This document shows positions 52,618-57,764 of a stretch of DNA of 64,000 nt, piece by piece. Within the stretch, counting starts at the first letter, position 1; every line of letters starts with the position of its first letter. Location of the stretch: NCBI GenBank assembly GCA_963737065.1, contig CAVTRC010000001.1, positions 384,001 to 448,000 of the forward strand, read 5' to 3'. The stretch comes from Candidatus Eremiobacteria bacterium (GTDB lineage: Bacteria > Vulcanimicrobiota > Vulcanimicrobiia > Vulcanimicrobiales > Vulcanimicrobiaceae). The notes beneath the pieces were generated by a model. It was not told the DNA's origin. It did not search any database and saw only the letters and a program-made list of their open reading frames with translations. Both the position numbers and the translations under genes were made by a program.

Positions 52618-53633
52618 CAATGCTTCTGCTCGGAATCGAGACGTCGTGCGACGATACCGCGACGGCGGTCGTGCGCGACGGCCGTTCGGTGCTTTCGAGC
52701 GTCTCGACGAATCAGGATGAATTCCACGCGAAATACGGTGGCATCGTGCCCGAGATCGCGAGCCGCCAGCACGTTGCGCTCCTCTCGGCGGCCGTAGCCG
52801 ATGCGGTCGAACGCGCGAACTTTACGCTCGACGACTTGGACGGGATCGCCGTAACGCGCGGACCCGGCTTGATCGGCAGTCTCGTCGTCGGCGTCGCGGC
52901 GGCGAAAGCGCTCGCGTTTGCGCTCGACAAACCGCTCTACGGCGTCAATCATCTGCACGGACACATCTTCGCGGCGTTTCTCGATCGTGACGAACCGATT
53001 CCATTTCCGTTTCTCGCCCTGCTCGTTTCCGGAGGCCACTCGCAACTCGTTGATGTCCGTTCACCGATCGACATGCGCATCATTGGCCGCACTCGCGATG
53101 ATGCGGCGGGTGAAGCGTACGATAAAACGGCGCGGCTTCTCGGTCTGTCTTATCCCGGCGGACCGCAACTCGACCGGCTTGCGCGCGAAGGTAACCCGAA
53201 AGCACATCCGTTCCCGCGTCACCGTCCCGATCCGGGAAGCCTCGATCTTTCGTTCTCGGGCCTCAAAACATCGGTTCGCTATTTTCTCGAATCCGACGAA
53301 GGCCGACGGGCAAAACCCGAAGACGTCGCCGCATCGTTTCAAGCGGCGGTTGTCGATGTGCTCCTCGCGCGCGTTTCGCGCGCATTTGAAGACGGCGCGT
53401 ACAACGCGCTCGTGATCTCGGGCGGCGTCGCGGCGAATTCGGCGCTGCAAGAGGCGATCCGGTCGTGGAGCAAACGCAACAGCATCGCGGCCTTCATTCC
53501 GCCGCCGAAATACTGCACCGACAATGCGGCGATGATTGCCGCCGCGGCATATCATCAGCGAGAGGTCGTTGAAGTGGACGCGCTTACACTCTCGGCCGAT
53601 CCCAATCTGCCCTTTGAAATTCGCGCCGCTTAG
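52614..53633 (+). CDS. tsaD: tRNA N6-adenosine threonylcarbamoyltransferase
   Basis: LGIETSCDDT, GGIVPEIASRQH, HLHGH, VSGGHS, DDAAGEAYDK, CTDNAAMI. Confidence 0.96.
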   Translation: MTMLLLGIETSCDDTATAVVRDGRSVLSSVSTNQDEFHAKYGGIVPEIASRQHVALLSAAVADAVERANFTLDDLDGIAVTRGPGLIGSLVVGVAAAKALAFALDKPLYGVNHLHGHIFAAFLDRDEPIPFPFLALLVSGGHSQLVDVRSPIDMRIIGRTRDDAAGEAYDKTARLLGLSYPGGPQLDRLAREGNPKAHPFPRHRPDPGSLDLSFSGLKTSVRYFLESDEGRRAKPEDVAASFQAAVVDVLLARVSRAFEDGAYNALVISGGVAANSALQEAIRSWSKRNSIAAFIPPPKYCTDNAAMIAAAAYHQREVVEVDALTLSADPNLPFEIRAA

Positions 53634-53668
53634 CAACCCTTTTCGCGCAACGTGGTATATCTACAGTC

Positions 53669-54142
53669 ATGATGACGCTACGCCCCGCTTTGATCGCACT
53701 CGCCGCAGCGGCTGTTCCGTTGCTTGCTTTCGCGCAGACGAGCCTGCCGCAGTCGACGCAAGATCGTCAGCAAATTCAAAACTTGCAGTTTCAGGCGAAT
53801 CTGCCGGGAACGAGTGCGGCGGAGCGCACGCAAATCGAGCGTCAGATCAGCCAATTGCAGTACCAAATCAACACGCGCGCGCCGGTGCAGCCGATGCCCA
53901 CGCTGACGCCGTCGTGGAACGGCGGACCGCTATTCAGCGGCGGAAATCTTCCGCAGCTGACCGCGAACCCAACCTTCGCGCCGCTCTCGCCGACGATTTA
54001 CGGCTCGTGCGATTCCGACCGCGCGGTCATCTCGTATTTGACGCAACAGATTTCGCTGCCGACGACGACCCGGCAGGAACGTCTCTACGATCAAAGCCAG
54101 AGCGCGGAACTCCAAAAAGATTTGCGCGCGAAGGGTTGCTAG
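53669..54142 (+). CDS. Secreted Gln-rich hypothetical protein
   Basis: Signal peptide ending AFA; two Cys; fills gap between tsaD and the met leader. Confidence 0.65.
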   Translation: MMTLRPALIALAAAAVPLLAFAQTSLPQSTQDRQQIQNLQFQANLPGTSAAERTQIERQISQLQYQINTRAPVQPMPTLTPSWNGGPLFSGGNLPQLTANPTFAPLSPTIYGSCDSDRAVISYLTQQISLPTTTRQERLYDQSQSAELQKDLRAKGC

Positions 54143-54144
54143 TC

Positions 54145-54173
54145 TTGACGCCGCCAAACGCTCGTGATAGCCT
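54145..54173 (+). promoter_or_regulatory. Sigma70-type promoter giving a leaderless transcript at 54181
   Basis: TTGACG(54145-50)-N17-TAGCCT(54168-73) with extended TGn; ATG begins after a 7-nt gap. Confidence 0.8.
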
Positions 54174-54180
54174 TTGCGCA

Positions 54181-54264
54181 ATGTTTACTGACGTCGCGAT
54201 GATGTGCCCGATGTGCTGCATGCAAATGCGCGCGGCGCGGGCCGTCGTGGAGCGAACCGTGTAG
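54181..54264 (+). CDS. Putative Met/Cys-rich attenuator leader peptide MFTDVAMMCPMCCMQMRAARAVVERTV
   Basis: 27 codons; 8 of codons 7-16 are Met or Cys; lies between the promoter and a strong hairpin upstream of hom-metY-metX. Confidence 0.85.
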   Translation: MFTDVAMMCPMCCMQMRAARAVVERTV

Positions 54265-54284
54265 TACGCGGGATCGAATCGCAA

Positions 54285-54324
54285 ACGACGCCCCTCGCCG
54301 CAATGGCGAGGGGCGTCGTCGTTT
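54285..54324 (+). terminator. Attenuator hairpin
   Basis: ACGACGCCCCTCGCC-gcaat-GGCGAGGGGCGTCGT perfect 15-bp stem followed by CGTTT (weak U-tract). Confidence 0.8.
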
Positions 54325-54362
54325 CACTCCTCGCTTTCCCGTCTCAAAAGGAGGCATGAGGA

Positions 54363-55517
54363 ATGGTATCCACCGCGGGCATCGCGTTGCTCGGCTGCGG
54401 TACGGTCGGTGCATGCGTCGCCGAGCGTTTACTCTACGAGCGCGATGTGATCGAACGCCGCAGCGGCGTGCACTATGAACTGCGCGCAATTGCAATCCGC
54501 GACGCGACGAGAACACGGATCGAGTCGATCGACACGCGACTCTTCACGACCGATCCGCGTGCAATCGTCGAAGATTCACGCGTCGATATCGTGATCGAGT
54601 GTATCGGCGGCACGGCACAGGCGTGTGAACTCATCGAGATCGCGCTGGAACGCGGCCGGTCCGTCGTGACGGCGAACAAGGATGTGCTCGCGACGCAGGG
54701 TCCACGCCTGCAGGCTCTCGCAGCGGCGCGCGGTGCGGGTCTGCGTTACGAAGCCGCGGCGTGCGGCGCGATTCCCGTCGTACGCATGCTTTATGACGCG
54801 CTCGCAGGCGATCGTATCGACGCGCTTGCCGGCGTCGTGAACGGGACGTGCAACGCAATTCTCTCGGAGATGGACGCCGGCTCGGAATTCGCTGAAGCCG
54901 TCGCCGCGGCGCAAGCGCGTGGCTATGCCGAAGCGGACCCATCGAACGATATCGACGGCGTGGACGCCGCGCACAAGCTCGCGGTATTGATGCAGCTCGC
55001 GTTCGGTCTGGCGGTCATCTCGCCGCGCATTCGCCACACCGGGATCGCCGGCGTAACAAAACGCGAAATCGCGCGCGCGCAAGCGCTCGGCTATCGTATT
55101 CGCTTGATTGCCGCAGCAGCACGCTGCGACGACGGCGCGTTCGCCGGCGTCGCGCCGTTGCTCGTCCCGCGCGATCACCCGTTCGCAACGCTCAGCGGAC
55201 CGGAAAATATCGTCCGCGTCGCCGCCCGCGATGCCGGTCCGCTCACTATGCGCGGGCGCGGTGCCGGCGGACCGGCAACCGCGTCGGCGATCCTCGGCGA
55301 CGTCGTTTCGTCGCTGCGCGCGCTCGGCGAGCGTCGCGACGTTGCACGTCAGCTGCGTGCGCTTGAACCGGCGCTCGACGTTGCCCCGATCTTCACCGGT
55401 CTTCCGCGTCATCCGGAACTCCCACGCTACGCGTTGTGGGATGACACACTACTTGATGCTCCCGTCTCGCACGCTCAAGCGTGCGTTGTTATGACGGGGA
55501 AAGGAACACGGCACTCA
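54363..55517 (+). CDS. hom: Homoserine dehydrogenase (no evident ACT domain); reads in frame into metY in this sequence
   Basis: [65 protein letters not shown]; true 3' end uncertain. Confidence 0.88.
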
Positions 55518-56813
55518 ATGAGCATTACGCTCGAAACGGACCACCCGCAATCGTTCGATACCGTCGCGGTGCACGGCGGTCACAACGGCGATCCGGCGAC
55601 GAAATCGCGCGCCGTTCCGATCTATCAAACGACCTCCTATCTGTTCGATTCAACGGAACACGCGGGCAAGCTCTTCGCACTGGAAGAGTTCGGCAACATC
55701 TATACGCGCATCAACAATCCGACCACCGACGTATTCGAACAACGCGTTGCGGCGCTCGAACGCGGTGCGGGTGCGCTCGCGGTCTCCAGCGGACAAGCCG
55801 CCGTCGTGTATTCGATCCTCAATCTCGCGAAGAACGGCGACCATCTCGTCAGCAGCGCATCCCTGTACGGCGGAACCTATAACGCGTTCACGCACACGCT
55901 CAAACGCTTCGGCATCGAGGTCAGCCTCGTCGACTTCAACGATCCCCATAGCGTCGAAGCGGCAATTCGTCCGAATACGAAAGCGCTCTTCGCGGAAACG
56001 ATCGGCAACCCGAAGATCGACGTGCTCGATGTGGAACTCTATGCCGAACTCGCGCACCGCCATGGTCTTCCGCTGATCGTCGACAACACGCTCGCAACAC
56101 CATACCTGTTGCGTCCGATCGAACACGGCGCCGATATCGTCGTACATTCGGCGACGAAATTCATCGGCGGGCACGGTACCGCGATCGGCGGCGTAATCGT
56201 CGACGGCGGGACGTTCGACTGGACCATCAATCCGCGCTTCGCCGAGTTCATCGAGCCCGATCCGTCGTACCACGGATTGCAATACGCCGCCGCGTTCGGT
56301 AATATCGCCTACATCGTCAAAGCGCGCGTTCAACTCCTGCGCAACATCGGCGCCGCGCTCTCTCCGTTCAACGCATGGCTTCTCTTGCAAGGCATCGAAA
56401 CGCTCGGTCTGCGCGTAGAACGTCACAGCAGTAACGCGCTCGCCGTCGCCGAGTTCCTCTCGCAGCACCCTCGAGTGACAAGCGTCGCATATCCGGGTTT
56501 GCCGGGTGATCCCGCACACGAACGCGCGCGTAAATATCTGCCGAACGGCGCCGGAGCCATCGTGACGTTTAGCGTTGAGGGCGGCGAGCGTGAAGCAAAA
56601 AGCGTCATCGATCGCCTCAGGCTCTTCTCTCTACTCGCAAACGTCGGTGATGCAAAGTCGCTCGTCATTCACCCTGCGAGCACGACGCATCAGCAACTGA
56701 GCGACGCCGAACGCCTGCAGAGCGGCGTCGACGCATCGACGGTCCGGCTCTCGGTCGGCATCGAGGACATCAACGATATCATCGCCGACTTGCGTCAAGC
56801 GCTGGCGGACTAA
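55518..56813 (+). CDS. metY: O-acetylhomoserine aminocarboxypropyltransferase (sulfhydrylase)
   Basis: [51 protein letters not shown]; own AAAGGA RBS-like sequence before ATG 55518. Confidence 0.93.
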
Positions 56814-56816
56814 CCG

Positions 56817-57764
56817 TTGCGCGAGCTGACGATCGGCATCGGATCGCTTCGGCTGCACGATGGCACGCTGCTGCACGACGTGCAGCAGCGTGTGACGATG
56901 TATGGCTCTCCATCTGCCGCTCGCGACAACATCGTGCTCGTCAATCACGCACTGACCGGTTCGAGCCGGGCGGCGGAGTGGTGGCCCGGCATCGTCGGCG
57001 AAGGTGCGCTCTTCGACCCGTCCGGCTGGTGTATCATCGGCATCAACGTACTCGGCAGTTGCTACGGCTCGACGTGGACGCCGCGCGTCACCGTTGCAGA
57101 CATCGTGTGCGCGCAAGCGCGCGTTCTCGATGAACTCGGGATCGAGTCGGCCGCCTTTGCCGTCGGTGGATCGCTCGGCGGCATGCAGGCACTGCAATGG
57201 GCGCTCGATTTTCCCGGCCGCATCAAAAACGCGATCGTCATCGGCGCGCACGACCATCACAGTGCAATGGGAATCGCGCTCAACGCGATTCAACGTGAAT
57301 GTCTTCAACTCGATCCGGTTCGCGGTTTACGTACGGCCCGCAAACTCGCAATGCTGACCTATAAATCCGAGGAACTCTTGAACGCCCGCCACGGCCGTAA
57401 CCCGGATCGCAACGATCGGTCGCGTTTCGACGTCGAAGGGTACCTGGATTTGCAAGCGGCGCGCTTCATCGGACGGATGGACGCCCGCACCTACACTACA
57501 TTGACGCACGCCATGGATTCATTCGACGTCCGCAGACGATCGCTCCATGGACCGCGCGTCACGTTCGTCGGAATCAGTTCCGACTGGCTGTTCCGCCCGC
57601 ACGACGTGCGTGCAGCGGCCGAAAAATTCGGTGCTGACTATATCGAGCTAGAGACGGACCACGGGCACGATGCGTTTCTCGCCGAATCGGGCCGCCTCGC
57701 CGAGCTCCTCCGGCCGGCGATTCATATTCGCAAAAGCGCCGGAACGAGCGTTATCGCGCCGTAA
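56817..57764 (+). CDS. metX: Homoserine O-acetyltransferase
   Basis: NHALTG, NVLGSCYGST, GGSLGGMQAL, SSDWLF, HGHDAFL. Confidence 0.92.
   Translation: MRELTIGIGSLRLHDGTLLHDVQQRVTMYGSPSAARDNIVLVNHALTGSSRAAEWWPGIVGEGALFDPSGWCIIGINVLGSCYGSTWTPRVTVADIVCAQARVLDELGIESAAFAVGGSLGGMQALQWALDFPGRIKNAIVIGAHDHHSAMGIALNAIQRECLQLDPVRGLRTARKLAMLTYKSEELLNARHGRNPDRNDRSRFDVEGYLDLQAARFIGRMDARTYTTLTHAMDSFDVRRRSLHGPRVTFVGISSDWLFRPHDVRAAAEKFGADYIELETDHGHDAFLAESGRLAELLRPAIHIRKSAGTSVIAP

Follow-up and report, generated by a model that had tools for sequence, protein, structure and literature searches.

A probable leader-peptide attenuator reading methionine and cysteine codons in front of hom-metY-metX of Candidatus Eremiobacteria bacterium

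Organization of the locus

The subject of this study is the region preceding hom in a 64,000-nucleotide stretch of DNA of Candidatus Eremiobacteria bacterium, an uncultured soil organism (assembly GCA_963737065.1, contig CAVTRC010000001.1, positions 384,001 to 448,000 of the forward strand), which as a whole is called the window below and in which positions are counted. The features of this region are probably those of a ribosome-mediated transcription attenuator of the trp type, in which a short leader peptide rich in methionine (Met) and cysteine (Cys) controls the hom-metY-metX operon. The elements concerned, the structural ones being named after their predicted roles, are the following.

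54145..54150, forward strand: -35 box TTGACG, read from the sequence and with comparative support
54165..54173, forward strand: extended -10 box TGATAGCCT (TGnTAnnnT), conserved in 85 leaders
54181..54264, forward strand: leader open reading frame (ORF) MFTDVAMMCPMCCMQMRAARAVVERTV, 27 codons
54199..54219, forward strand: segment 1, 5' arm of the anti-antiterminator, which pairs with A and lies inside the Met/Cys codon run (codons 7-16, 54199-54228)
54232..54248, forward strand: segment A (segment 2), partner of segment 1 or of B, from complementarity and folds
54252..54282, forward strand: spacer in which the folds place small hairpins (54257-62:54266-71 and 54252-55:54279-82)
54285..54301, forward strand: segment B (segment 3), shared by the terminator (as 5' arm) and the antiterminator (as 3' arm)
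54305..54319, forward strand: segment C (segment 4), purine-rich 3' arm of the terminator, GGCGAGGGGC
54320..54326, forward strand: weak U-tract CGUUUCA
54327..54335, forward strand: segment D, CUCCUCGCU, complementary to C, its first five bases also to AGGAG
54333..54355, forward strand: post-terminator module GCUUUCCCGUCUCAAAAGGAGGC, present at each of the 13 hom loci with a leader that the protein search turned up
54349..54354, forward strand: Shine-Dalgarno (SD) sequence AGGAGG of hom, 8 nt before its ATG, invariant in the 85-leader alignment
54363..56813, forward strand: hom-metY, homoserine dehydrogenase fused in frame to O-acetylhomoserine sulfhydrylase, 816 amino acids (PF03447, PF00742, PF01053; NF004976; TIGR01326)
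56817..57764, forward strand: MetX-like homoserine O-acetyltransferase, 315 amino acids, alpha/beta hydrolase fold (NF001209, TIGR01392)

The matches of the MetX-like protein reach E values of about 1e-74, yet they stay under the curated cut-offs. Taken together, the annotations of hom, metY and the metX-like gene predict an operon that makes homocysteine from aspartate semialdehyde.

Leaders in related genomes

The Hom protein was searched for in 41 related genomes and a match was obtained in 28 of them, a tally which includes the unpublished genome G014. Among 30 fetched hom loci, 13 were characterized by a Met/Cys leader ORF, a terminator and the post-terminator module (12 of them complete, while L004 is cut at a contig end), with leader peptides such as MFTTTAMMCPMCCMQMHAAWAVVERTV, MSILTSRMFCMCCLNQAAGRLLRT and MSGLIMRMSTPSCMCLHAAREAVS. 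Two loci from more distant genomes (L024 and L025) carry Met/Cys-rich short ORFs without the post-terminator sequence, and no leader was seen in the remaining fetched hom loci. In each of the 13 leaders obtained by the protein search, the module spans 23 bases, GCUUUCCC(A/G)UC..A..AGGAGGC, placed after the terminator.

Of 301 genomes of the family, 108, spread over 26 of 78 genera, contain an exact match to the pattern GCTTTCCCRTC(3-9 nt)AGGAGG, a tally that takes in the unpublished genomes G188, G063 and G050; the reversed control of this pattern gave 0 matches. A scan of one genome per species with this pattern yielded at least 115 stretches and, among the matches listed, a promoter-anchored short ORF was present in 106 of the 123 distinct stretches examined. 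Three matches in records of other phyla (L074, L085 and L106) are without a leader and look like chance matches. The 85 distinct leaders that precede hom were aligned with MAFFT and constitute the main comparative set, to which the conservation values given below refer. These leaders are kin, and most of them were gathered by the pattern that demands the module, so the invariance of the module in this set holds by construction; both points count against the interpretation. Three contigs (L089, L114 and L133) come from public records titled Babeliales or Acidiferrales, yet they carry typical Baltobacteraceae hom leaders, the peptide of L114 being identical to that of L086 from a Cybelea record; these contigs are likely mis-binned or mislabelled.

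The leader reading frame and its promoter

The leader ORF of the window contains five internal Met codons (7, 8, 11, 14 and 16) and three Cys codons (9, 12 and 13), and its stop codon (54262-64) is located within the spacer between A and B. Methionine accounts for 338 of 1968 internal residues (17.2%) and cysteine for 145 (7.4%) in the orthologous leaders, which corresponds to means of 4.0 Met and 1.7 Cys per leader; only 4 of the 85 are free of Cys. The enrichment is tied to the reading frame, as ATG occurs 338 times in frame vs 49 and 4 times in the other two frames. The peptides vary freely except for Met and Cys (78 distinct sequences among the 85), and both Cys codons are employed (TGC 91 times, TGT 54 times). 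In L161 and L182 the leader frame was assigned wrongly or broken by the start-picking rule; in L161 a difference of 1 nt from its alignment neighbours breaks the frame and leaves a 10-codon ORF.

The position of the leader start relative to the promoter is equally regular. The distance from the -10 box to the leader ATG is fixed at 7 nt in the 85 leaders, so the transcript would begin at the A of this ATG or 1 nt before it. In about three quarters of the leaders TTGAC occupies positions -36..-32, counted from the leader ATG (in about 20 rows it is shifted by 1 nt), and in the -10 region the frequencies are 94-95% for TG at -16/-15, 99% for T at -13 and 95% each for A at -12 and T at -8, values which are partly circular because the leader-start rule demanded TTG..T(A/G)nnnT, while the TG and the absence of an SD were not demanded. 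None of the 85 leaders has GGAG, GAGG or AGGA in the -17..-1 interval before the leader ATG. No SD was found upstream of the leader ORF of the window either and, together with a start 7 nt after an extended -10 box, this indicates that the ORF is probably leaderless. A 157-amino-acid ORF on the forward strand (53669-54142), with a signal-peptide-like N-terminus and with no matches in Pfam or NCBIfam, ends 3 nt before the -35 box.

Threonine codons stand just ahead of the Met run in the leaders of the genus (MFTTTAMM, MFATTTMM and MFATTTAMM in L002, L005, L006 and L008) and at codons 3-6 in the window. A single hom was found in the genome, and Hom feeds threonine synthesis too; the leader may sense threonine as well. 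Over all 85 leaders threonine amounts to 5.2% of residues and is not enriched.

Mutually exclusive helices and their conservation

A first-pass annotation of this DNA had described a cascade of mutually exclusive hairpins leading from the leader ORF to the SD of hom, and the complementarities that it listed are present and above chance. In a direct check, segment A (54232-54248, GCGGCGCGGGCCGTCGT), which corresponds to codons 18-23 of the leader ORF, was complementary to B (54285-54301) in 15 of 17 places, and all 15 bases of B from 54285 to 54299 paired with C (54305-54319) around a loop of 5 nt. The GCGAGGGG part of C (54306-13) and the CTCCTCGC part of D (54327-34) form eight pairs, including one G.U, and CTCCT in D (54327-31) is complementary to AGGAG (54349-53). 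When B was searched for in the whole window with at most 2 mismatches, three matches were obtained, namely B itself, the opposite strand at A and the opposite strand at 54303-54319, which overlaps C; dinucleotide shuffles expect 0.12 matches, and three were reached in 0 of 100 shuffles. The 201-nt stretch 54170-54370 folds with -99.5 kcal/mol vs -77.5 +/- 4.4 kcal/mol for its shuffled versions (z = -5.0), none of 200 being as stable.

To these pairings a further one has to be added, which was missing from the earlier description. Segment 1 pairs with A through the helices 54199-204:54243-248, 54206-209:54239-242 and 54213-219:54232-238, giving a hairpin of -28.2 kcal/mol. The A:B duplex has an energy of -28.0 kcal/mol (-38.5 kcal/mol for the hairpin including inner stems) and the 15-bp B:C hairpin one of -33.8 kcal/mol. 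The helices 1:A, A:B and B:C together thus reproduce the classic 1:2 / 2:3 / 3:4 design of an attenuator.

The set of pairs expected in the terminated (OFF) state, which comprises 1:A, B:C and the invariant GCUUUC:GGAGGC pairing of the module, is paired in 86.4% of alignment cells vs 44-55% when the arms are slid against each other. Changes on both sides occur in 22 of its 38 pairs, in 148 cells vs 55.5 +/- 9.4 after shuffling, a number reached by 0 of 500 shuffles. Within this set, the four scored 1:A helices are paired in 77-86% of cells, with 10 of 16 pairs changed on both sides, and the two scored B:C helices in 84.0% and 94.7%, with 11 of 15 pairs changed on both sides. The core helix of A:B, in the register of the window, is paired in 84.9% of cells, and the sequence of the spacer (54252-54282) is not kept between clades. 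When transcripts ending before C were folded individually, every one of the 85 leaders had 10 or more A:B pairs in its minimum free energy (MFE) structure; the MFE was -30.2 kcal/mol vs -20.2 kcal/mol with A shuffled, and z was below -2 in 74 of 85. A covariance model of A:B re-found 82 of the 85 leaders, along with 6 antisense matches.

Ribosome position and the proposed mechanism

The effect of ribosome position was followed with footprint-masked folds, in which the ribosome was assumed to hold 28 nt unpaired, from -12 to +15 of the first base of the P-site codon. In the pre-C transcript (to 54302), A:B was formed with codons 8-14 in the A site, and it was lost with codon 20 or 24 in the A site, where the footprint lies on A. 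With the ribosome at the stop codon, the footprint extends over about 54247-54274, which is the 36-nt A-B loop, and the folding program nonetheless keeps A:B; sterically, a helix that encloses a ribosome in this place would be implausible.

The stall/read-through switch proposed by the first-pass annotation is supported in one half and needs correction in the other. In the masked folds, a ribosome on the Met/Cys codons leaves A free for A:B, and the competition of B:C with A:B is conserved with compensation. The OFF state had been attributed to a ribosome covering A, which is the less likely account, since the footprint at the stop codon spans the A-B loop and not A. The OFF state is better explained by helix 1:A, which joins the Met/Cys codons to A, is itself compensated and would re-form behind a ribosome that has run through.

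Accordingly modified, the proposed sequence of events would be as follows. Transcription would start from or next to the AUG of the 27-codon leader, which would be translated without an SD. When Met and Cys are plentiful, the ribosome would run to the stop codon at 54262, 1:A would re-form behind it, and the ribosome on the stop codon would fill the 36-nt A-B loop, so that B would be free for C as C emerges; the B:C hairpin and the U-tract would then halt RNA polymerase. When Met-tRNA or Cys-tRNA is scarce, the ribosome would stall with one of codons 8-14 in the A site, covering segment 1 and not A; A would take B once B has been made, B:C would be blocked, and the polymerase would enter hom. 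The attenuator reading is based on the observed pairings, energies, conservation and covariation, in-frame Met/Cys enrichment and promoter geometry. The homocysteine-forming operon downstream, a Cys-only leader before cysH in the same genome and the lack of SAM-I, SAM-IV and T-box matches in that genome speak for it as well. Where the transcript starts, that the ORF is translated, that ribosomes stall on it and that termination takes place in vivo is inferred. With good but not full confidence, control of hom-metY-metX can be assigned to such a trp-style attenuator, the sensed signal being, as the codons suggest, charged Met- and Cys-tRNA.

Evidence weighed against the attenuator

Several results weigh against this interpretation. 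A consensus promoter scan gave no call at the leader promoter, where the -10 box matches at 3 of 6 positions. A consensus terminator scan left the B:C hairpin uncalled, and the U-tract of the window is weak, as the first-pass annotation had already flagged, with only three T among the eight bases that follow the stem (CGTTTCAC). The last two results are also the ones that would be expected if the leader acted without intrinsic termination, either because a stalled or absent ribosome alters Rho loading on 54320-54348 or through an effect on translation only, with B:C being merely a stable structure. The C-rich, G-poor composition of CACUCCUCGCUUUCCCGUCUCA is in line with such an explanation, as are the 38 of 85 orthologs with at most 4 T in the 8 nt downstream of the stem and the actinobacterial Cys leader peptides, which are without terminators in the accessible part of a survey of that group (PMC1262725). 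Against it stand the other 47 orthologs, which have at least 5 T (5-7) after a hairpin averaging -27.9 kcal/mol over the 85 leaders (mean 4.5 T in 8 nt) and show the canonical anatomy of an intrinsic terminator. Moreover, the covarying three-way complementarity of A, B and C is what an antiterminator/terminator pair requires. We therefore consider action without intrinsic termination to be unlikely. At the same spot (54320-54326), where the window has TTT, its congeners L002, L003 and L005 carry TTTTT to TTTTTT, which likewise speaks for a terminator; the shortfall is possibly an under-called homopolymer in the 2-contig assembly.

Further points of this kind concern the A:B helix. Its outer part, in the register of the window, is paired in only 55.0% of cells across clades, the register differing between clades: the leader of the window has CGUCGU:ACGACG, the L011 group UUUGC:GCAAA, and the largest group GUGAAGC:GCUUCAC or AUGAAGC:GCUUCAU. 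Applied to the MAFFT alignment of the 85 A-to-B stretches, RNAalifold returned no consensus pairing, and on two subgroups of these stretches it found none in one and only a 3-bp stem in the other. This failure is the reason why the per-sequence folds and the covariance-model alignment were used for A:B. On the latter, A:B is paired in 82.6% of cells vs 43-64% slid, 11 of 19 pairs are changed on both sides, and 59 two-sided cells stand against 21.9 +/- 4.0 after shuffling (reached by 0 of 500 shuffles), but these numbers are not probabilities, as the alignment was fitted to that very structure, holds 6 antisense rows and consists of kin sequences. In addition, the controls with A shuffled still form 10.4 long-range pairs. 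The duplex energy with the B arm is -19.7 kcal/mol for native, -16.0 for shuffled and -18.2 for swapped upstream arms, so native and foreign arms are barely separated; in pairing, foreign arms equal the native one in 42% of cases on average, the swap test being too blunt for GC-rich RNA.

The folding of the longer transcript does not discriminate between the states either. With C present (transcript through the U-tract), B:C wins at equilibrium at every ribosome position, and the decision between the alternative helices must therefore be kinetic, as it is in other attenuators, which is beyond what folding can show. Without a ribosome, the pre-C transcript already favours A:B, and termination in the absence of translation is thus not predicted.

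The module and a possible translational layer

The first-pass annotation had carried its cascade further, to the translation of hom. In the full cascade as considered here, formation of B:C would let D (or GCUUUC) sequester the SD, and formation of A:B would let C capture D, by which the SD would be exposed; read-through transcripts would then be translated in the antiterminated fold only. Such a layer would add to the attenuator and does not exclude it. We treat the full cascade as a tentative proposal, rather doubtful on the present evidence; an equally cautious wording applies to the more general idea that the pyrimidine-rich D together with GCUUUCCC pairs with purine-rich C or with the SD and so might couple hom translation to the antiterminated fold.

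The complementarities required for it are present, with an energy of -14.5 kcal/mol for C:D, and C:D does form in the ON state when A:B is forced on 54181-54385. Both pairings are also kept as sequence, C:D being paired in 90.3% of cells vs 63-75% slid and D:SD in 87.5% vs 49-72% slid. Two-sided changes occur in 1 of 762 cells for C:D, the observed pairing being reached by 92 of 500 shuffles, and for D:SD there are none because the SD never varies. The C:D and D:SD alternatives of the earlier annotation are thus present and conserved as sequence, but they are not backed by covariation. The sequence of D (CCUCGC) repeats the core of B, and that of C is similar to the SD; in a few clades D has changed in step with B and C (CUCCGC/CUCCCGC in L006 and L008, CGUCGC in L083, L136 and L143), which is suggestive but anecdotal, being read from the alignment. 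On the other hand, CCUCGC is missing from related leaders before NMT1-type genes.

Within the module, GCUUUC can pair with GGAGGC as an anti-SD with the SD, both sides being invariant, and GCUUUC(C):GGAGGC appears in many MFE folds of related leaders before other genes. The loop of the module has variable positions, and nothing was found that covaries with them. The mean accessibility of the SD is 0.46 with C free and 0.26 with C held by B, and it is higher in the ON than in the OFF state in 69 of 85 leaders; the gain is small, close to the control with shuffled C (0.37), and in the window the values are 0.35 vs 0.23. The CUCCU:AGGAG helix is chosen in neither forced state of the window. The claim that the SD is exposed in the ON state was not borne out, as GAGGC of the SD (54351-55) pairs with GUCUC (54341-45) under both forced A:B and forced B:C; this local hairpin is not conserved, most relatives having AUCGC in place of GUCUC. 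A link between the attenuator and the SD is possible, and the modelled folding of the window does not reproduce the exposure. Precedents for such a layer exist in the accessible parts of two sources, one describing an SD-sequestering hairpin in trp read-through transcripts of B. subtilis (PMC11602163) and the other mycobacterial polycysteine ORFs on which stalled ribosomes block structures that sequester the ribosome-binding site (bioRxiv 10.1101/834739).

Leaders before other sulfur genes

In the genome of the window the module was found in the hom copy only. In relatives it also follows Met/Cys or poly-Cys leaders placed before other sulfur genes (L041-L056, L059, L081, L088, L100, L122, L134, L149, L153 and L176). 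These targets include NMT1/SsuA-type periplasmic binding proteins (leader MSNLHIMCHMCLVPAPDRRRLASRISK), phosphoadenosine phosphosulfate (PAPS) reductase (leaders MRAFACACCPCCSGDPRGSAN and MSSLLGTMCRCCRNCSTGGPANSAMT) and Cys/Met enzymes dependent on pyridoxal phosphate (PLP).

A second leader is present in the same genome outside the window (G000:C1:1930151-1930360, ORF at 1930211). It has Cys codons only (7 Cys, MFVVCCSACLCCSTPPAWDSCRIP) and precedes a 242-amino-acid ORF, a putative cysH, which resembles PAPS reductase. This leader has the promoter TTGACG..TGATAGGTT and a strong terminator with TTTCTTTTT, and it is without the GCTTTCCC module. The promoter-anchored scan of this genome for leaderless short ORFs gave 5 candidates, of which the hom leader alone is rich in Met/Cys; the rule did not catch the cysH leader, whose spacing is 9 nt. 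Models of SAM-I, SAM-IV and T-box elements gave no match in this genome, which is 95% complete, while the SAM-II search of it was uninformative, the control genomes having given no signal.

The preservation of one module before several different genes is reminiscent of riboswitch cores. Together with the strong structure of the region, it could be taken to mean that the element is a switch binding a ligand or protein, for instance a sensor of S-adenosylmethionine (SAM), with an incidental ORF, or else that the Met/Cys-rich peptide is itself the functional product. The remaining evidence makes this very improbable. In Rfam, searched over 53600-54800 with permissive thresholds (E <=10), seven matches were obtained, all far below the gathering threshold; no family reached it, the best match scoring 23.4 bits vs a cut-off of 47. 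The conserved module lies 3' of the terminator, and therefore it cannot govern the termination decision. The frame-specific ATG enrichment, with an ORF start tied to the promoter, does not fit an incidental ORF, nor does the variety of the peptides apart from Met and Cys fit a functional product. On the results for Rfam, ATG frame and peptide variability, neither the metabolite riboswitch nor the functional peptide was retained as an explanation.

The distribution of these leaders suggests that, in Baltobacteraceae, genes of sulfur metabolism form a regulon controlled through sensing by ribosomes. A more far-reaching scheme is conceivable, which we put forward as a speculative one: a Baltobacteraceae-wide sulfur amino-acid ribulon, in which independent leaderless Met/Cys ORFs, before hom-metY-metX, cysH, SsuA/NMT1-type and Cys/Met PLP genes, would each act via an SD-like terminator arm on a shared anti-SD module GCUUUCCC..AGGAGGC.

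Reading frame of hom-metY

The joined hom/metY frame of 816 amino acids is found in this genome only; hom and metY are separate adjacent ORFs in six congeners or close relatives, L002, L003, L005, L006, L007 and L008. Near the junction, at about 55480-55560, the window differs from its relatives by a 1-nt insertion and a 2-nt deletion. The joined frame may be a real fusion or the result of an assembly indel.

Relation to known systems and significance

The control of methionine genes is usually ascribed to SAM riboswitches, T-boxes or repressors. To our knowledge, no methionine operon is among those that textbooks give as attenuated (trp, his, phe, leu, thr, ilv). No published classical attenuator of methionine genes and no literature on leader peptides in Eremiobacterota were found, subscription journals being outside the coverage. 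The comparisons that follow draw on the accessible parts of the cited sources. In these, Seliverstov et al. described actinobacterial Cys leader peptides without terminators and no attenuator of a methionine operon (PMC1262725), and the examined part of Naville and Gautheret contains no mention of Met/Cys leaders (PMC2965389).

The hom leader shares with the classical attenuators (trpL, hisL, pheL, leuL, thrL and ilvL of Proteobacteria, trp and ilvB of Actinobacteria; PMC1262725) a short ORF with cognate codons, the 1:2, 2:3 and 3:4 segments, a GC-rich putative terminator hairpin and the location of the regulatory codons inside segment 1. It differs from them in that Met, whose codon AUG is also the start codon, would be sensed together with Cys, in the apparently leaderless ORF, in the weak U-tract, in the conserved module after the terminator, and in the stop codon, which in this genus lies 14 nt past segment 2. 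A second likeness is to the leaderless polycysteine ORFs of mycobacteria, the 'Cys ribulon' of Canestrari et al. (bioRxiv 10.1101/834739), with which Cys codons and, probably, a leaderless sensory ORF are shared, as well as the occurrence of independent copies at several sulfur loci (here and in relatives hom, cysH, NMT1-type and Cys/Met PLP genes). The mycobacterial ORFs act on translation via structures at the ribosome-binding site and are without terminator hairpins according to PMC1262725, whereas the hom leader has a full predicted terminator/antiterminator pair and more Met than Cys codons.

The predicted metL leader peptide before metNIQ of Streptomyces lividans TK24 (PMC8079986) is leaderless, as the hom leader probably is, contains a Cys-Met-Cys..Met-Cys cluster and precedes a methionine-related operon. 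It is an annotation from RNA-seq of a single genome, placed before a transporter and described with 'termination unclear', and in the accessible part of that source it comes with no antiterminator model or comparative support; its likeness to the hom leader is one of description. The combination of attenuation with an SD-sequestering hairpin in one leader is known from the TRAP system of B. subtilis trpEDCFBA (PMC11602163), which follows the same logic as the cascade. There the sensor is a protein (TRAP) and the SD layer was shown experimentally, while in the hom leader the sensor would be the ribosome and the SD layer is putative.

Summarizing, the presented results indicate that a conserved trp-style attenuator reading Met and Cys codons probably operates in the uncultured phylum Eremiobacterota. 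In relation to the known systems, the new elements are the sensing of Met together with Cys, the apparently leaderless ORF and the post-terminator module common to the sulfur regulon, which is a candidate for the coupling of attenuation to translation initiation. The signature of a leaderless Met/Cys ORF followed by a terminator may serve the annotation of such leaders in metagenomes. If the sulfur amino-acid ribulon exists as outlined, one stalled ribosome would set both transcriptional read-through and translation initiation, and the device would replace in this lineage the SAM riboswitches and T-boxes of other bacteria. For the control of hom-metY-metX itself, the attenuator reading would mean that ribosome stalling can take over the role that a SAM riboswitch or a T-box plays elsewhere.

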